A DNA stretch of 64,000 bases from a virus. Taxonomy: Duplodnaviria; Caudoviricetes. The notes below the pieces were generated by a model, which saw only the letters and a list, made by a program, of their open reading frames with translations, was not told the origin of the DNA and did no database searches. The position numbers and the translations under genes are program-made. This document shows, piece by piece, positions 7,571 through 15,562 of the stretch (position 1 is the first letter of the stretch; each line of letters begins with the position of its first letter). The DNA lies in the IMG/VR virus record IMGVR_UViG_3300033073_001493, positions 4,927-68,926 of that record; one strand, given 5' to 3'.

Positions 7571-7941
7571 GCGCCACGTCATCTGATGACCAGTGGTCTC
7601 TCATCGAGCTGCATCGCAGCGCCGACGGCATCGTGCGGCTGGTGGCGCAGGCGGGCCGCCACGGCCGGGCGCGGCACGCCACGGCGACCTGTCGGGGGCA
7701 GGTTTCCGGTGTCTGGCTCGGCGATCTGTATGGCCAGGTGCTGCGTCGCCACCTGGAGGCAGCGAGCAGACTGCGCGGGCTGCGAGAGCAGTGGCTCTCC
7801 GCGGCACGAAGGCACGAAGTGTGCGGTCGCCGTGTGCGAGCCACGCGCCTGCGTGAGCGCGCCTTCCTGCTCGGCGCCGCGCTGCACGAGTTGAGCGCCC
7901 TTGCCAACGTCACAAGCGAGCTGCCCGCGGGCGTTCCCTAG
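7567..7941 (+). CDS. Hypothetical protein
   Basis: GTGA overlap with the XRE gene; no motif. Confidence 0.4.
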   Translation: MSATSSDDQWSLIELHRSADGIVRLVAQAGRHGRARHATATCRGQVSGVWLGDLYGQVLRRHLEAASRLRGLREQWLSAARRHEVCGRRVRATRLRERAFLLGAALHELSALANVTSELPAGVP

Positions 7942-8011
7942 CACAGCGCCGCTAGTTGTCTGCGCCGCCACCGTGGGCGCACTGTCCCGATAGGCCCGAG
8001 GGCCGCTGACC

Positions 8012-9490
8012 ATGACCCAAGCCGCTGCCACACGAGCGTGTGAGCAGTGCGGGCAGTCGTTTCCCTACGAAGGGACGACGCGCCGCTACTGCTCGGAGAG
8101 ATGCCGCTACCGGCACAAGGACCAAGCGCTGCGCTCCAACCCCGAGCGCCACGCGCGGCAGGCCGCGCAGCAGGCCGCGTGGATGGCGGCCAACGTCGAC
8201 TGGCGCAATGCCCGCAGGCGAGAGCGCACGCTGGCGAGGCGGCTCGACGTGCCCGCGACCGAGTGCCTGCACTGCGCCGCCGCGATGCCCGCGCGCAAGC
8301 TCCGGGTCTACTGCTCCGACGACTGCGTGATGGCCGCATGGCGCAAGGCCAAGGCGGCCGAGACGGAGCCTCGCCCCACGCCTGCCCCACGTCGCCGCAT
8401 CGTGACCGTGGCGGGCGAGCGAGAGGCCACCAGCGAGGCGAGCGAGCAGCCTGCCCGGTCGCCCTACGAACTGCCCGCGCCAGACCTTGGCCGCCACGTT
8501 CCCGGCGTCGTGTGCGAGCTGCTGCTGAGCGGCGTGCCCGGCATCGTCGAGCACCGCCACGCGAGGCTGCTGCACGGGCTGCTCTCCCACGCCATCGGCC
8601 GAGACCACGACGCCATGCGGCCGGCCTTCGCGCTCGTGCCCTACGCGCACTGCCGCTCCCAGTGGGCCGTGTGGTGCGCGAGCCACGACGATGCGAGGCG
8701 CCTGCACACGAGCCCCCACGCAGGCACGCTCTTCGGCCGCGACGTGCGCGTGTCGCTCGGCCTGCCCCACCGCGTCCACCTGCCTCGCTACCAGCCCGGC
8801 CGCTACACGGTGCGCATCGACACGGTGACGCTCGTGCACGTCCGCAGCAACGGCACGCACACGCACACGGTCAAGACGGCGCCGACGGCCGAGAGCCTCG
8901 CGAACACGCTGACGACGACGCTCGCCCGCTTTCGCCTGGGGCTCGAGGTCGCGCCGGCCGACCTTGGCCTTGCGCTGCTCTCGCACGAGACGATGCCCGA
9001 CCGGCTGCACACCGGCAGCGAGTCGCACTGGCGCAACGTCGACGACGGCGCTGCGGTGCCCGGCCTGCTCTCGGGATGGGTCGGCACCGTCGTGGTCGAG
9101 GTGAGCGCCGTCGGTCGCACGCTGCTCGAGTGTGCGCGCTGGATGGGGCTCGGTGGCCGCGTGTCGCTGGGGCTAGGCCGCATCGCCGTGCGCGACGTGA
9201 CCGACAGCGCCGAGCGCTCGCGCGCCGTGGGCAGGTTCTTCGTCACGCCGCACGCCGTCGAGCGCTACCGCGAGCGCATCGAGCCCGTGGCCTACGACGT
9301 GGCACTCGGCCGCCTCATTCGCGCATCGGCCGACGCCCGCCTCGCCAAGCGCTACCCCGACGGGCAAGCGCTCTACCGCACGGGCAAGCCAGACCGCCTC
9401 GCCTTCGTCGTCGCGCCGTGTGCCGAGCCCGGCGAGCGCTCTCACGCCATCGTCACGGTTCTCGGCCCGCCAGCAAGGAGCGCAACATGA
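8012..9490 (+). CDS. cas6: Multidomain protein: two CxxC...CSxxC Zn fingers, Cas6-like RAMP domain, C-terminal putative RelE/DUF4258-like domain
   Basis: CEQCG...YCSERC and CLHCA...YCSDDC; central region with RLLHGLL, GWVGTVVVEV and G-rich loop WMGLGGRVSLGLGRI (GhGx5GhG, Cas6 hallmark); C-terminal VTPHAVERYRERI...IVTVL; heads the csf operon. Confidence 0.75.
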   Translation: MTQAAATRACEQCGQSFPYEGTTRRYCSERCRYRHKDQALRSNPERHARQAAQQAAWMAANVDWRNARRRERTLARRLDVPATECLHCAAAMPARKLRVYCSDDCVMAAWRKAKAAETEPRPTPAPRRRIVTVAGEREATSEASEQPARSPYELPAPDLGRHVPGVVCELLLSGVPGIVEHRHARLLHGLLSHAIGRDHDAMRPAFALVPYAHCRSQWAVWCASHDDARRLHTSPHAGTLFGRDVRVSLGLPHRVHLPRYQPGRYTVRIDTVTLVHVRSNGTHTHTVKTAPTAESLANTLTTTLARFRLGLEVAPADLGLALLSHETMPDRLHTGSESHWRNVDDGAAVPGLLSGWVGTVVVEVSAVGRTLLECARWMGLGGRVSLGLGRIAVRDVTDSAERSRAVGRFFVTPHAVERYRERIEPVAYDVALGRLIRASADARLAKRYPDGQALYRTGKPDRLAFVVAPCAEPGERSHAIVTVLGPPARSAT

Positions 9491-10020
9491 ACACCATCGA
9501 CACCCTTCGCTCTTTCGGCGCCTGTGACGATGCACTCGAATGGGCCGAAGATCGACCCGAACAGTCGCCAAACGGGCTTTGGCTAGAGTGCCATCGAGCC
9601 GATTGGCTGCTTTGGTACATGGGCAAACTCGCCGCGCGCGACGGCCACGGCTCCAAAGTTCACCGCCGCGCGGTTTTGATCGCTTGCCTGTGTGCCCGCA
9701 TCGCATCCATCCACTGGCGCGATCCATCGTGCGAGCGTGCCGTGTCGTTGGCTGAGCGGTGGGCTTGGGGCGACAGATCGGTCACGTGCGGGGAATTGCA
9801 CGCCGCCGCTGCTGCCGTTGAATACGCCAACGCTGCCCACTCCGCCGCCGCCTCCGCCGCCGCCACCGCCGGAGACGCCGCCGCTGCTGCCGTTGAATAC
9901 GCCAACGCCGCCTACTCCGCCGCCGCAGACTGCTCTTCCAGAAACGCCGCCGCCCGAGAGGCGCGCCTCGCCTCTCTCGCCGACTTGATCCGTGCTGCCA
10001 TCCCCGAGGTGCCGCTGTGA
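9487..10020 (+). CDS. Ala-rich repeat hypothetical protein between cas6 and csf1
   Basis: AAGGAG RBS, ATGA and GTGA overlaps on both sides; duplicated AAAAAVEYANAA unit. Confidence 0.75.
   Translation: MNTIDTLRSFGACDDALEWAEDRPEQSPNGLWLECHRADWLLWYMGKLAARDGHGSKVHRRAVLIACLCARIASIHWRDPSCERAVSLAERWAWGDRSVTCGELHAAAAAVEYANAAHSAAASAAATAGDAAAAAVEYANAAYSAAADCSSRNAAAREARLASLADLIRAAIPEVPL
9800..9908 (+). repeat. Two perfect 34-nt direct repeats, period 75 nt, inside a CDS
   Basis: ACGCCGCCGCTGCTGCCGTTGAATACGCCAACGC at 9800-9833 and 9875-9908. Confidence 0.9.
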
Positions 10021-11159
10021 TCGCCCCGCCGCCGTCACCGTCGCGGGCCTACTGGCTCGTGTGCGGCTCACCGCACGTCGAGCTCGAGACCGACGCGCCC
10101 GAGGGCGCACGCTGCGCCATCTGCGCCGACGAACTGCGAGGCCGAGGCGTGCCGCTCGCCAGGTCGCCCGTGTCGTTCTGCAACCAGACCAACACGCGCA
10201 TCCCCGCGTCGCCATGGCTCTGCGTGCCGTGCCTGTTCGCAACGCGCTGGATTGCCCCGCCAGGACGTAGCGGCAAAGCCGACGGCGACGATGGCGGGCG
10301 TGGCCCGAACCCCGCCATGTACGGCCACCGCTGGGAACAGCTCGCCGATGGCACTGTGCGCTACGGCAACCACTCGAAGGGCGACAAGGCCGAGCTTCGC
10401 GCGTGGCTTCGCGCGCCGAAGGCTGGCTGGTGGTGGTGCACCATTGCCGACAGCGGCAAGAAGCACACGATCCCCTGGGCGCCCATCAACCACGGCTCGT
10501 CAGCGCAGGCCGCCGTGCTGTTCGACGAGGTGATGATCACCGTCGGCGACCACGCGATGGTCGACGACATCTCGGCGCTGCTCACCAGCGGCGCCACCAA
10601 GGCCAGCGTCGAGTCGGGCCGCTACACCACGGGCGAATACGAGCGATGCGCCCAACACATTGCAGCGTTTGAAAACAGGTGGGGAGCGCAGCGCGGCGGT
10701 GGCTGGTTCGGCCTCGCGGTGTGGCTCGCCCAGCGAGACGAGGCCGCCGTCGCCGCGAGGCTCGACGAGGAGCGCGCGGCCAAGGCCGCCAAGAAGCAAG
10801 CCGAGAGGGAGCGGGCCAAAGCAGACAAGCCCGCCAAGACGAAGACCACGAAGGCCCCACGGGCCGCAAGGAGCAAGAGCGATGATCGACGAGAAGCAGA
10901 AAGAGACGCTGCGGACGCTGACGGTGGAGCTGATGCTCGACCTGCGCAGCCAGTACCTGCGCACGCCGGGGTGCAACGCGCTGACGCACTGGGAGCAGCT
11001 CACGACGAGGATGCGAGCGTGCGCCCGCATGTCGGAGAGCGTCGACGAGTGGGCGACGATGATGCTGCGCCGCCTTCAGATACCGGCGCCCAGCAAGTAC
11101 AGCTCGGACTCTTTGCTGACGCTGAGCCACGCGGTGCGCGAGCTCGGCGCCGCAAGTGA
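10017..11159 (+). CDS. csf1: Type IV Csf1 (Cas8-like large subunit) with basic C-terminal extension
   Basis: N-terminal CAIC...CVPC Zn site; WWWCTIADSGKKHTIPWAPIN matches the Csf1 SxKKH(L/T)xxxxPVN-type motif; upstream of cas11-csf2-csf3. Confidence 0.8.
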   Translation: MIAPPPSPSRAYWLVCGSPHVELETDAPEGARCAICADELRGRGVPLARSPVSFCNQTNTRIPASPWLCVPCLFATRWIAPPGRSGKADGDDGGRGPNPAMYGHRWEQLADGTVRYGNHSKGDKAELRAWLRAPKAGWWWCTIADSGKKHTIPWAPINHGSSAQAAVLFDEVMITVGDHAMVDDISALLTSGATKASVESGRYTTGEYERCAQHIAAFENRWGAQRGGGWFGLAVWLAQRDEAAVAARLDEERAAKAAKKQAERERAKADKPAKTKTTKAPRAARSKSDDRREAERDAADADGGADARPAQPVPAHAGVQRADALGAAHDEDASVRPHVGERRRVGDDDAAPPSDTGAQQVQLGLFADAEPRGARARRRK

Positions 11160-11280
11160 CTGGCTCGAGCTGATCGAGCGCGAGCACGCGCTCCTCATCG
11201 CCATCGCCCGCAAGACCTCCGAAGAGCGCCGCGACCAGCGCGCGTCGGCCGACGAGACCCTGACCCCACAAGAGGTGTGA
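10882..11280 (+). CDS. cas11: Cas11-like small alpha-helical subunit (type IV-B)
   Basis: AAGGAG RBS at 10868; 132 aa, predicted helical (HWEQLTTRMRACARMSESVDEWATMMLRRL); position between csf1 and csf2 as in IV-B loci. Confidence 0.7.
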   Translation: MIDEKQKETLRTLTVELMLDLRSQYLRTPGCNALTHWEQLTTRMRACARMSESVDEWATMMLRRLQIPAPSKYSSDSLLTLSHAVRELGAASDWLELIEREHALLIAIARKTSEERRDQRASADETLTPQEV

Positions 11281-11283
11281 GCC

Positions 11284-12303
11284 ATGTACGAACAGATCCG
11301 CTACGAGTTCATCATCGAGGCGCAAGAGCCCATCGCCCACCACAGCGAGAGCGACGGCAACCAGGCCGTCGCCTTTCGCAAGAAGGTCGTGGGCCCCGAC
11401 GGTGTGGTGCGCCAGGTGCCCATCGTCACCGCCGACACGATCCGCCACGGGCTGCGCGAGGCAGGCACGTTCGCCTACCTCGATGCGGCCGGCCTGCTCG
11501 ACCAGGCGGCGCTCACCGAGTCGGCGCTGCGTCTGTTGTTCAACGGCGGTATGATCACCGGCAAGGGCGGTGACTCGGGCTCGGTCTCGCTCGACGCATA
11601 CCGCGAGCTGGTCGAGCTGATCCCCCACGTCGGCCTGCTCGGCGGCTGCGCCCGCAACCGCTCGATACCCGGCAAGGTGCAGGTGAGCGACGCGCTGCTC
11701 ATCTGCGAAGAGACGCGCCACCGTCTCCAGCCGTGGCAGCGTGACCTGCTGGGCAAGAGGCAGCTCAACTCGCACCGCAGCTACGTCGAGAACGAGCAGC
11801 GTGTGCGCATGGATGTGATGCTCGACCCATCGAAGCGGCGCCTGCTCACGGCAGGCGATCAGGTGCGCGCCACCGGCAAGCTCGCCGCGAGCGAGCGCGC
11901 CAGCGAGACGGGCGACGCCATCGAGAAGGCCGAGGCAAAGAGCAGCATGATGCCCCGCTCGTTCGAGCGCATCGCGCAGGGCTCGCTGTTCATGCTGTCG
12001 ATCGACGCGGTGGTGCAGACGCCGCTCGAGCGAGACGCGCTCGACCTGATGGTCACGGCGTTCGTGACCCGTGGCCGCGTGGGCGGAAAGAAGGGCACGG
12101 GCCACGGCAAGATCGGCGTCTTCGGCGTGGCGCAGGCAGACGGCACGACCGAGTGGGCGGCGCAGATCGTGCCGCTGCTCTCGCCCTCGGAGCACGCGAC
12201 CTCGATCCAGCTCGGCGACCGCGCGTGCGGGCAGATGATGCGAGCCCACGTCGCCAGCAACAAGGATCGCATCAAGACGCTGCTCGACAGGATCGACGCC
12301 TGA
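11284..12303 (+). CDS. csf2: Type IV Csf2 (Cas7-family backbone RAMP)
   Basis: EAQEPIAHH, VPIVTADTIRHGLRE, LLFNGG, LIPHVGLLGGC...IPGKVQVSD, G-rich loop VGGKKGTGHGKI. Confidence 0.9.
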   Translation: MYEQIRYEFIIEAQEPIAHHSESDGNQAVAFRKKVVGPDGVVRQVPIVTADTIRHGLREAGTFAYLDAAGLLDQAALTESALRLLFNGGMITGKGGDSGSVSLDAYRELVELIPHVGLLGGCARNRSIPGKVQVSDALLICEETRHRLQPWQRDLLGKRQLNSHRSYVENEQRVRMDVMLDPSKRRLLTAGDQVRATGKLAASERASETGDAIEKAEAKSSMMPRSFERIAQGSLFMLSIDAVVQTPLERDALDLMVTAFVTRGRVGGKKGTGHGKIGVFGVAQADGTTEWAAQIVPLLSPSEHATSIQLGDRACGQMMRAHVASNKDRIKTLLDRIDA

Positions 12304-13061
12304 TGGCCTCGCGTCGCAAGGGCCCGCAGGCAGCCCCGGCGCAGCACGCCGATGAGCAGCCGGCAGCGCTCCAGACAGCGCCGCCCGCGTGCATGATGGC
12401 GCCCGTGGGCGAGCCTGCGCGCTGTCCCGAGCCGCTGCACGTCGTCGCCCACATTCGCGACAGCATCGTCACGGCGCCCATGCTCGACGCGCTGCTCGCC
12501 TACCACACAGCGCAGCGTGCGGGGCTGCCCATGTGGGCGCGGCCCGACGAGCAGCCGCGTGTCGAGATCCCCATCGCCAGATCGCCATGCGGCAGGTTCC
12601 ACCTTGCCTCTCGGCCGCAGTTCGCGGTGCAGGAGAGCGAGCAGCGGTTCAAGTCGCGGCGCCCCATCGTCGAGCCTGCGCAGCTACTCGCAGGCCCGAG
12701 CGTGCGGCGGCTCGACATCCAGACAGGCGCCAACAAGGGCTTTCGCATCCCGTACAGCACGCACCTCGTCGCGGGCGGCGTCGTGCACTGGTGGTGCATG
12801 GGCGACCGTGACCGCATCGCCGAGATGCTGCGCGGCTGCCTGCACCTCGGCAACAACCGCCGCGTCGGCCACGGCTGGGTCGAGCGCTGGGACGTGCAGC
12901 AAGCCGAGCCCTGGCCAGGCTTCCCGGTCGTGCAAGACGGCCGCCCCCTGCGCGCGCTGCCGCTCGACTGGCCAGGCGTGACCGCTGGCGGCGTTGGCAT
13001 GTCGGCGCTCACCTATCCGTACTGGGCCCCCGAACGAAAGCAGCCGTGCCGTGTGCCGTGA
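12303..13061 (+). CDS. csf3: Type IV Csf3 (Cas5-family RAMP)
   Basis: MLDALLAY, IPIA, WWCMGDRDRIAEML..CLHLGNNRRVGHGWVERWDV (G-rich loop), RALP, YPYW C-terminus. Confidence 0.85.
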   Translation: MASRRKGPQAAPAQHADEQPAALQTAPPACMMAPVGEPARCPEPLHVVAHIRDSIVTAPMLDALLAYHTAQRAGLPMWARPDEQPRVEIPIARSPCGRFHLASRPQFAVQESEQRFKSRRPIVEPAQLLAGPSVRRLDIQTGANKGFRIPYSTHLVAGGVVHWWCMGDRDRIAEMLRGCLHLGNNRRVGHGWVERWDVQQAEPWPGFPVVQDGRPLRALPLDWPGVTAGGVGMSALTYPYWAPERKQPCRVP

Positions 13062-13647
13062 GCATGGCGCGGTGCTCATTGGTCCCCACCGGCTGCTATG
13101 CAGCGACGTGACCACGGGCGCGGTGGGGCGCCTCATGGGCGACGAACTCGCCGATGTCGTCTACAGCGACCCGCCGTGGGGGCCCGGCCTCCTGCGCTGG
13201 TTCTACACGCACGCCAAGATCGACTGCCAGGCGACGTGGGGCTCGTTCCTGGCCGCGTTCTGCGCCGCCGTGGCGACCCACAGAAAGCCCGCCGCGCCCG
13301 TGTTCGTGGAGATGGGGCACGCGTGGACCGACGATCTTGCCGCAGCCATGCTGGCCGTTGGCATCGCCGAGTCGGCGCGGTGGCGCGTCTCCTATGGTTC
13401 GCCCAAGCGCGAATCGGTGCTCTGGTACAGCGGCGCGCCGTTGGCGGGAGACCCGACAGGGCTGCATGGGCGAGCGGTCCCAACATGGGCCCTGTCACGC
13501 GTCGTGCAGGCTGGCGCCGTGGTGCTCGACCCATGCTGCGGAAAGGGCACCACGGCGGCTGTCACGAAGAGGCTCGGCGGCGTGTTTCGCGGCGCCGAGC
13601 TCAATCCCAAGAGGCTTGCCACCACACAGGATGTTCTGAACAGATGA
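13051..13647 (+). CDS. Short beta-class amino (N4-C/N6-A) DNA methyltransferase-like protein
   Basis: Catalytic motif IV YSDPPW N-terminal; SAM-binding VVLDPCCGKGTT...GAELNP C-terminal; about 198 aa; GTG start inferred. Confidence 0.8.
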   Translation: MCREHGAVLIGPHRLLCSDVTTGAVGRLMGDELADVVYSDPPWGPGLLRWFYTHAKIDCQATWGSFLAAFCAAVATHRKPAAPVFVEMGHAWTDDLAAAMLAVGIAESARWRVSYGSPKRESVLWYSGAPLAGDPTGLHGRAVPTWALSRVVQAGAVVLDPCCGKGTTAAVTKRLGGVFRGAELNPKRLATTQDVLNR

Positions 13648-14732
13648 CCGTCATATCCGCCAGCATCATGCATGCGCCATGGGCAACGGCTCGCAAGGCG
13701 CATGTTGCCGCCGCGCTCGATGCGCTCAGGGACGGCGACGACGTTGTGAGCAACTCCGTCGTTGTCGAAGACGCCGAGCGCAGCGGCGTGTGGCCATGCG
13801 GCAAGCGCGCCATACAGGCAGCGCTGTCGCACCAAGACGCGACCCACATACTCGTGCTGCAAGACGACCTGCTGTTCTGCCGGTCGTTCGCCAAGGCGCT
13901 ACGTCTCGTGGTCGACGCCAAACCGGCTCACGTCATCTCGCTCTTCAGCATGAGCCGCGGCGTCGTTCTCGAAGCCAAGACGCGCGGCTCATCGTGGGCG
14001 TGGGGGCCCGATGCCGCCTACGGACAAGCCATTGTGATGCCCGTCGAGATGGCCGCCGACTTCCTGCGCTGGGAGCCAGGCAACATCAGGGACGACTTCC
14101 CCTCCTACGACAACCGCATCGCGACCTATGCGCGCGCGACCGGGCAGGGTGTGTGGGTGCCATGCCCCAACCTCGTCGACCACGCCATGCCCGCTGACTC
14201 GCTGCTCGGCTACAGCAACCGCGTGCGCGTCGCGCGGTGGTTTCTCGGCGACATGGACCCGTCGCTCATCGACTGGCGCGCAGGCGCAGACGACCCGGTG
14301 CGGTGCAGCGGCACCGTGGACTATGGGCGATCGATGGTCGACGCCGGCAAGCTCTCTGGCGTGCCCTGCGCACCAAGGCCGACAGACCCCCTCGCTGCCA
14401 TGATCGCAGAGGCAAGGCGCGACCCGCACCTACGCCGGTGCATCAAGCCTGGCCAGCGTCACGAGCCGCTGCTCTTGCGCGGGCGCATCGTGGGGTTCGT
14501 CACGCCACACGAGCAACGTGAGGGCTGGCGCGCGGGCCCCATCTACGTCACGCCGTCGGCACGCAAGCAAGGCGTCATGCGTGCGTTCTACGAAGCGCAT
14601 CGCGACAGGACATGGCTTGCGGCCATCAAGTCTGACAACGAGGCCAGCGAGGTCGCTCACGAGCGGTGCGGATTCGCGCGGCTGCGAAGGTGCAAGCTCG
14701 GATGGATCTGGCGCAGGGGGTCAACACGATGA
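13644..14732 (+). CDS. GT-A glycosyltransferase-like domain fused to a C-terminal GNAT acetyltransferase
   Basis: HILVLQDDL (DxD-like), YGQAIVMP, YDNRI, VPCPNLVDH; C-terminal GPIYVTPSARKQGVMRAF...DNEASEVAHERCGF fits GNAT motifs A/B. Confidence 0.7.
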   Translation: MTVISASIMHAPWATARKAHVAAALDALRDGDDVVSNSVVVEDAERSGVWPCGKRAIQAALSHQDATHILVLQDDLLFCRSFAKALRLVVDAKPAHVISLFSMSRGVVLEAKTRGSSWAWGPDAAYGQAIVMPVEMAADFLRWEPGNIRDDFPSYDNRIATYARATGQGVWVPCPNLVDHAMPADSLLGYSNRVRVARWFLGDMDPSLIDWRAGADDPVRCSGTVDYGRSMVDAGKLSGVPCAPRPTDPLAAMIAEARRDPHLRRCIKPGQRHEPLLLRGRIVGFVTPHEQREGWRAGPIYVTPSARKQGVMRAFYEAHRDRTWLAAIKSDNEASEVAHERCGFARLRRCKLGWIWRRGSTR

Positions 14733-15562
14733 GCGACGAGCAGCAGAAGGAGCCCATCCTCTCGGCCGACGACTGTGAGGCGTGGGCCTACTGGCGAATG
14801 GTCGCGCTGGTGCATGCCGACACCAAGGCGTTCGCGCGCAAGGTGAAGAGCGCCAAGGACGTGGCGGCGCGCTGGCTAGATGGCTGCAAGCGACCTGCCG
14901 TGTCGTGGTCTGCGGGCAAGGACAGCACATGCATGACGCACCTCATCTGCTGCGAGATGGGGGCACGAGGCATCGTGACGGCGCTGTCGGAGAAGGACGA
15001 CCTCGACTACCCCGGAGAGGAGCAGTACGTGCGCGAGACGGCGGACGCGTGGGGCCTTCGGCTCGAGCTGGTGCGTCCCGAGCAGTCACCGTGGGGATGG
15101 CTCGTCGAGCACCGCCGCGAGCTCGGCGCTGGCAGCGAGATGCACGCGCGCTCGGCAGGGCTCAGCAAGGCGTGCTTCTACGGCGTGATGGAGCAGGCAG
15201 ACCGCGCCTTCGATGGCGTGGCGCTCGGTCTTCGCAGCGAGGAGTCGGGCATCAGGCGCCGGGTGCGCGAGATGCGAGGGCGCTGCTTTCGCCTCGCCTC
15301 CGGGCAGCTACGATGCCTGCCCGTGGCCGACTGGTCGGGGCTCGACGTGTTCGCCTATGCGCACAGCCGCAACATCGAGCTGTTGCCTGTCTACCGCTGC
15401 ATGGCGCTGATGCACGCGCGCGAGCCGTGGCTCATTCGCAAGAGCTGGTGGCTGCCAGGTAGCCACGCCGCGCAGGGCGGCGTCGTGTGGCTGAGGCGCT
15501 ACTACCCGAGCCTCTACGACAAGATGTGCGCGCTCTTCGGCGACACCTGGCAGTACACATGA
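14729..15562 (+). CDS. cysH: CysH/PAPS-reductase-like PP-loop protein (type IV-B signature gene)
   Basis: VSWSAGKDST PP-loop, LGLRSEESGIR, LPVADWSGLDVFAY....LLPVY. Confidence 0.9.
   Translation: MSDEQQKEPILSADDCEAWAYWRMVALVHADTKAFARKVKSAKDVAARWLDGCKRPAVSWSAGKDSTCMTHLICCEMGARGIVTALSEKDDLDYPGEEQYVRETADAWGLRLELVRPEQSPWGWLVEHRRELGAGSEMHARSAGLSKACFYGVMEQADRAFDGVALGLRSEESGIRRRVREMRGRCFRLASGQLRCLPVADWSGLDVFAYAHSRNIELLPVYRCMALMHAREPWLIRKSWWLPGSHAAQGGVVWLRRYYPSLYDKMCALFGDTWQYT

Follow-up and report, generated by a model that had tools for sequence, protein, structure and literature searches.

A divergent Cas6 lineage at array-less type IV-B operons, represented by a zinc-ribbon-Cas6-DUF4258-like fusion protein of a phage contig

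Type IV-B is a CRISPR subtype that reviews describe as having neither an array nor an enzyme to process CRISPR RNA (crRNA) (PMC8175902). Cas6 is absent from it "with rare exceptions" according to Pinilla-Redondo et al., and as late as September 2026 its function was described as unclear (PMC13676074). In Mycobacterium sp. JS623 (PMC7937560; definition in PMC8175902, Pinilla-Redondo et al.) the IV-B locus comprises csf1, cas11, csf2 and csf3 with a cysH-like gene, has no array or adaptation genes and is carried by a mobile element. The Cas6 or Csf5 enzymes described from type IV (Mahella, 6NJY; Csf5, 6H9H; the IV-A1 complex, 8RC3) belong instead to IV-A, where they accompany DinG and an array. 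Here we analyse a 64,000-nucleotide stretch of the virus record IMGVR_UViG_3300033073_001493 (Duplodnaviria; Caudoviricetes), hereafter the window, and in it a gene that we call cas6x. The gene opens a co-oriented type IV-B operon on a single virus contig of 68,926 bp, of which the window is positions 4927-68926, and it lies with cas11 and cysH and without an array or DinG. The absence of Cas6 that forms part of published IV-B definitions does not hold for this locus, the first operon gene being cas6x.

The product of cas6x, protein P0001, combines N-terminal zinc ribbons, a Cas6 core with two RRM/ferredoxin-like halves (RRM1 being the first) and a C-terminal, or tail, domain. The parts are as follows, in nucleotide positions of the window.

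8012-9490, + strand: cas6x (P0001), ATG start, open frame of 492 amino acids, zinc-ribbon/Cas6/DUF4258-like fusion protein
8039-8104, + strand: zinc ribbon 1, C10-x2-C13-x13-C27-S-x2-C31
8264-8326, + strand: zinc ribbon 2, C85-x2-C88-x12-C101-S-x2-C105
8447-9205, + strand: Cas6 core, two RRM/ferredoxin-like halves, residues ~146-398
8573-8608, + strand: RRM1 histidine pair H188 and H199, from the column counts of the family alignment
9146-9178, + strand: G-rich loop GLGGRVSLGLG, residues 379-389
9221-9475, + strand: C-terminal domain ("Cdom"), residues ~404-488, beta-alpha-alpha-beta4, motif GRFFVTPHAVERYRER

Judged by its modelled fold, the central region of P0001 is a true but very divergent Cas6. 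An AlphaFold2 (AF2) model built on an alignment of 107 relatives reached a mean predicted local distance difference test score (pLDDT) of 85.6, with values above 90 over residues 150-400, and was used in place of a single-sequence model with a pLDDT of 34.6. Two tandem RRM/ferredoxin-like domains make up the modelled core. A Foldseek search of the model against the Protein Data Bank (PDB) gave 46 matches at E<=1e-3, every one a Cas6 or a closely related repeat-associated mysterious protein (RAMP), with the Cas6-RT-Cas1 structures 6dd5 and 7kft among them, while Cas5/Cmr3-type RAMPs reach only about 9 in the structural comparison of the core. A fold search of BFVD with P0001 returned nothing at E<=1e-3; its only matches were weak ones to small phage proteins, over about 90 columns. 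The loop GLGGRVSLGLG has the GhGxxxxxGhG form of the Cas6 family, aligns with the G-loops of 6fjw and 3pkm, and keeps its glycines almost throughout the relatives (G379 in 106/107, G381 in 107/107, G387 in 106/107 and G389 in 107/107). An earlier sequence-only reading had proposed a double-RRM Cas6 with this loop at its end, which the fold matches and the aligned loop bear out; both CxxC-x(12-13)-CSxxC motifs that it listed are present, as is the extra C-terminal domain, whose opening FFVTPHAVERYRERI occupies residues 409-423 (nucleotides 9236-9280).

The core shares with the type I and III Cas6 proteins (S. thermophilus 6FJW, T. thermophilus TTHA0078 4C8Y, P. furiosus 3PKM) the two-RRM fold, the C-terminal G-rich loop and a conserved histidine after helix alpha-1. 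P0001 differs from them in being only 9-20% identical to solved or curated Cas6 proteins, in falling short of the Pfam cut-off, in carrying zinc ribbons and an additional C-terminal domain, and in occurring without an array. Some sequence resemblance can still be detected: the PADLOC Cas6 match of P0001 stands at 2.7e-5, 75 of the 107 relatives match PF10040 at E<0.01, and a few reach curated cut-offs (P0020 at 27.9, P0036 at 26.0 and P0059 at 25.0 bits; P0010 at 23.1 bits for PF01881, cut-off 23). The catalytic residue of Cas6 is usually a histidine in RRM1. Among relatives that are about 30-40% identical, H188 is kept in 107/107 and H199 in 103/107, while the basic G-loop residue R/K383 is kept in 97/107, and H199 is the candidate general base; a weak alignment to H39 of 6fjw and the offsets of the structural alignments would put it at the place of the Cas6 catalytic histidine.

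The gene itself is real and under purifying selection, as independent assemblies carry it free of indels and its variation is mostly synonymous. Contigs from at least three independent studies hold it uninterrupted: an assembly of wastewater DNA run X2 spans 7900-9524 with 0 gaps, that of metatranscriptome run X7 spans 8033-9846 with gaps only past 9700, and that of estuary run X9 spans 7900-9483 with no indel in cas6x. Among the 28 listed assembly differences inside the gene 22 are synonymous and 6 non-synonymous, and 21 of the 28 lie at third codon positions; the third-position GC content of the frame is 0.90 in surroundings of 69% GC. The linker of residues 119-145 is disordered in the AF2 model and the second zinc ribbon is poorly modelled, both of which would fit an open reading frame (ORF) that joins unrelated genes through mis-assembly or mis-calling. 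The unbroken frame in contigs of separate studies, the mainly synonymous variation and the zinc-core-tail order kept in relatives at 36% identity refute that explanation, to which we assign next to no probability. The three-part fusion is therefore not the assembly artefact that the sequence-only reading had allowed for.

Beyond this contig, Cas6x forms a large and very divergent Cas6 lineage that is found almost only beside csf1-cas11-csf2-csf3-cysH genes. An exhaustive HMMER search returned at least 312 cluster representatives at E<=1e-3, 156 of them at E<=1e-10 and most of them metagenomic, with residues ~150-396 as the region common to the family. When loci were collected by the Cas6 core, csf1, cas11, csf2, csf3, cysH or methyltransferase genes adjoined it in 31/38, and the other seven lie on contigs of at most 2.8 kb or are cut at the gene; wherever the flank is long enough, csf or cysH genes adjoin the family gene. 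A second set, seeded with Csf2 and hence unbiased with respect to Cas6x, contains 23 viral loci from IMG/VR. In twelve of these (10 distinct) Cas6x is present, placed directly upstream of csf1 or downstream of csf3; six have only a stand-alone tail domain, and five near-identical loci have neither. A dedicated, conserved Cas6 in 12 of 23 loci, replaced in most of the others by a small RelE/ParE-like domain, speaks for the use of a specific RNA by these complexes. A pattern scan of IMG/VR found no close relative of P0001, and tblastn at E<=1e-3 gave no match to it among the phages of GenBank or the plasmids of PLSDB, which may explain why the lineage escaped notice. Csf2 likewise has no match among GenBank phages and one weak plasmid match in PLSDB. 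What is new here is the size of this divergent lineage and its dedication to IV-B, the independent link of the tail domain to IV-B, and the either/or pattern of the two.

The tail domain (residues ~404-488) is modelled with a pLDDT of about 90, has H414 and A415 invariant and contains several conserved arginines besides the invariant histidine. It is probably a distant relative of DUF4258, a BECR-fold family of the RelE/ParE superfamily whose activity is unknown (PMC11980606). With hhalign, a profile of 23 tail copies matched a DUF4258 profile over its whole length at 67.7% probability (P 4.9e-5, 74 columns) against 0.1-1.7% for controls, the "HA..R..R" motifs of the two being superposed; the DUF4258 profile came from a scan of 201 genomes with the loci of G042 and G144 left out. 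In the ESM Atlas the tail matched a DUF4258 cluster with template modelling (TM) scores of 0.62/0.63, while the DUF4258 match in BFVD reached an E of 0.22 only. The likeness to DUF4258 (PF14076) thus extends to size, the beta-alpha-alpha-beta4 order and the aligned motif. The tail differs in lacking a direct Pfam match, a search of it and four stand-alone homologues at E up to 10 having found no family, PF14076 and other RelE/ParE models included. It also differs in its surroundings, being fused to Cas6x or placed within csf operons with no MqsA/YgiT-type partner seen next to it. The canonical DUF4258 genes (L069-L097) are mostly followed by a gene for an MqsA/YgiT-type zinc-finger antitoxin with a C.NCGE motif. 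The RelE-like nature suggested from the sequence thus gains support from the profile and Atlas comparisons and none from Pfam, and "RelE-like" is a fair but unproven label.

The tail is a IV-B module in its own right, because it is fused to either end of Cas6x or stands alone in loci without Cas6x. It occurs in 17/149 family members (~11%), after the core in 12 and before it in 5, and stand-alone tail genes flank the csf operons of L039-L043; in L012 the genes for Cas6x and the tail domain are adjacent and unfused. Fusion in either order points to a functional link between the two. At the other end of the protein, ribbon 1 has two cysteine pairs on a beta-hairpin knuckle (strands at residues 7-9 and 16-18), as in four-cysteine zinc ribbons, and with the three helices after it, to about residue 78, it is modelled at a pLDDT of 88-95. 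The zinc region of phrog_1271 matches it with an E of 5.9e-9, and it resembles ribbons of phage NinG, DUF2116 and HNH-associated proteins, which we take as leads only. Ribbon 2 is a duplicate, present among the 149 family members compared only in P0001 and its 99% twin, and its motif lies in a low-confidence part of the model (pLDDT 48-66); a CxxC N-terminal to the core is found in 90/149. Of the tandem phage-type zinc fingers proposed earlier, the first is therefore well modelled (pLDDT ~90, residues 10-80) and the second is poorly modelled.

The operon runs in the order cas6x, orf177, csf1, cas11, csf2, csf3, a DNA methyltransferase gene, an ORF at 13644-14732, the cysH-like gene and a gene for a DUF488 protein. 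The main members after cas6x are listed below.

9487-10020, + strand: orf177, alanine-rich repeat gene, a variable insert that separates cas6x from csf1 and overlaps the cas6x stop by ATGA
10017-11159, + strand: csf1 (Cas8-like large subunit), PADLOC typeIV_Cas8 4.3e-12, homologues in related loci
10882-11280, + strand: cas11 (small subunit), in another frame and overlapping the csf1 tail, phmmer matches in at least 17 related loci with the same overlap
11284-12303, + strand: csf2 (Cas7), PADLOC typeIV_Cas7 5.7e-45, TIGR03115 4.7e-10
12303-13061, + strand: csf3 (Cas5), PADLOC typeIV_Cas5 1.2e-28, TIGR03116 6.2e-11
14666-15562, + strand: cysH-like gene of the PAPS-reductase fold, a signature accessory of IV-B, Pfam PAPS_reduct 8.3e-11

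The locus therefore has the IV-B gene set of csf1, cas11, csf2, csf3 and a cysH-like gene and is without an array, adaptation genes or DinG; no helicase was matched among the window ORFs scanned. This is the gene content of the JS623 locus, from which it differs in several respects: Csf2 shows no more than 30% identity across 42% of its length, csf1 here runs into cas11 and has a clamp-like motif at its end, and the carrier is a phage rather than a plasmid. An integrase gene, an XRE repressor-type gene and a DUF5131 gene lie upstream of the operon, and phage structural genes fill the remaining window. The start of cas11 lies about 278 nucleotides before the csf1 stop, and this two-frame overlap recurs in nearly all related loci; in L027 (1442-2800) the Csf1 and Cas11 matches fall in one ORF as an in-frame fusion. 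The csf1 tail is really coding and ends in the beta-clamp-binding-like motif QLGLF (11100-11114), a kind of motif found in 21/35 distinct Csf1 tails against 4/700 control windows. The loci that have neither Cas6x nor the tail domain (L046-L049 and L055) have a short Csf1, no clamp-like motif and almost no csf1/cas11 overlap. No homologue of orf177 was found in related loci. A variant contig from an estuary joins 9483 to 10018 and is without this gene, whose repeat region at 9824-9897 draws a hundreds-fold depth of contigs that stem from unrelated GC-rich DNA. A 16-nucleotide sequence, GTGCCATCTAGCACGT, occurs twice upstream of the window (G000:C1:1381-1396 and 2833-2848) near divergent repressor-like genes and may be an operator. 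The 68.9-kb record is widespread. The 20 runs with any part of it belong to seven studies, and 18 runs contain half or more of the sampled operon words; these 18 are wastewater, river, freshwater and estuary samples and include three wastewater metatranscriptome libraries. As the runs were read as contigs, they show presence in RNA libraries rather than transcription, transcript ends or small RNAs.

The reading that we favour, at somewhat better than an even chance, is that the cas6x product is the Cas6-family subunit of an array-less IV-B (Csf) module borne by the phage, and that this subunit binds a specific RNA hairpin, probably cuts it, and so seeds a complex on a defined RNA. Cas6x would recognise the hairpin as Cas6 or Csf5 does in type IV-A and type I, probably cut it through H199, assisted by H188, and stay on the cut product in the manner of Cas6 in complexes of types I and IV-A. 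From there it would nucleate a Csf2-Cas11 filament on a defined RNA, in place of the random RNA of the solved IV-B complex that lacks Cas6. The RNA would come from a non-CRISPR transcript of phage or host, and since the system is array-less the CRISPR repeats of the host are only one candidate substrate. The zinc ribbon or ribbons and the DUF4258-like tail may act in the same pathway as accessory nucleic-acid-binding or RNase modules, possibly providing a second cut.

Several results weigh against this reading, above all the lack of any substrate in sight: no array, repeat or shared motif turned up. The 68.9-kb record contains no CRISPR array, mini-array or repeated hairpin, and a search for tandem and direct repeats in 14 long related loci found no CRISPR array, so the association with an array that belongs to the classical definition of Cas6 is missing throughout. 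Nor did a search for shared 9-mers in the flanks and gaps of about 50 loci yield a common motif. P0001 itself scores 20.0 bits for PF10040 where the cut-off is 25, and H199 pairs with H39 of 6fjw in a weak alignment of -1.8 bits, with only structural-alignment offsets otherwise. In addition, neither Cas6x nor the tail domain lies within 9 kb at the JS623 IV-B locus, from which it follows that IV-B complexes can assemble without Cas6x. Rfam and tRNA scans gave no candidate RNA partner, nor did a promoter and terminator scan, and there is almost no intergenic space in the csf operons. The only array-like feature in the 14 related loci is a pair of 27-nucleotide direct repeats in L012 (925-951 and 1031-1057), 93% identical, 106 nucleotides apart and about 5 kb upstream of the csf operon.

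The same lack of an array in the record and the 14 related loci would suit a host-directed role, in which Cas6x binds or cuts the repeat transcripts of the host, either to load the phage Csf complex with guides of the host or to starve host effectors. Such hijacking or anti-CRISPR activity would be in keeping with a temperate phage that has an integrase and a repressor-type helix-turn-helix protein, and crRNA scavenging or sponging has been proposed for IV-B in the literature, together with a negative correlation with other CRISPR types (PMC8175902; Pinilla-Redondo et al.). We nevertheless regard it as unlikely, for Cas6x is far from solved and curated Cas6 in identity, P0001 lies below the Pfam cut-off, and the protein belongs to its own IV-B-linked lineage spread over very different contigs. 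A divergent lineage of this kind suggests a long-standing dedicated partner rather than a recently captured host enzyme adapted to the repeats of the host.

About as improbable, in our estimate, is a catalytically silent scaffold. Here the Cas6 fold would only cap the Csf complex or act as its structural adaptor, for instance by tethering it to DNA or another protein by way of the zinc ribbons, and would cut no RNA. The failure to find a substrate in related loci, flanks or gaps fits such a scaffold, a number of proteins with the Cas6 fold serve chiefly as bound subunits, and the clamp-binding-like Csf1 tail in the same operon suggests action on DNA. A profile of RRM1 alone, searched against PDB sequences to place the catalytic histidine, found no Cas6 and only chance capsid matches at E ~1, and so gave no residue-level match to catalytic residues. 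The near-invariance of the RRM1 histidine pair (103-107 of 107 relatives) and of R/K383 (97/107) speaks for the other side, being a pattern that one would look for in an active site or at a specific contact with RNA and not in a passive cap. The tail could also make the whole protein a toxin module, with a RelE/ParE-type RNase toxin acting in abortive infection or addiction and the Cas6 part targeting or regulating it. Compatible with this are the invariant histidine and conserved arginines of the tail and its remote likeness to DUF4258, a family of BECR-fold toxins that usually have an MqsA-like antitoxin as partner. The similarity is modest and without a Pfam match, however, no antitoxin-like gene adjoins cas6x or the stand-alone tail copies, and the tail always lies inside csf operons and is present in only ~11% of Cas6x proteins, so that we hold this to be very unlikely.

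Fusions of Cas6 are not without precedent. In the Cas6-RT-Cas1 protein of Marinomonas mediterranea (6DD5, 7KFT) the partners are a reverse transcriptase and an integrase, and the role is in adaptation. No description of a zinc-ribbon-Cas6 or a Cas6-DUF4258-like fusion was found in the literature searched, in line with the earlier remark that the three-part architecture was unfamiliar from described systems.

The presence of Cas6x places a Cas6 in a subtype defined by the absence of one, and the tail domain would add a new accessory to IV-B. Cas6x also offers a practical handle on the RNA of this subtype. More tentatively, and with a probability well short of even, we suggest that a large phage-borne branch of IV-B makes its own guide RNA without an array: Cas6x, a small BECR-fold RNase-like protein able to replace it or fuse to it, or both would cut a defined phage or host transcript, and the product would programme a Csf complex docked on the replication clamp through the Csf1 tail, which would bring the CysH-like and further modification enzymes to a selected nucleic acid. 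If this were true, Cas6x would be the means of revealing which RNA and which target type IV-B uses, both long sought.
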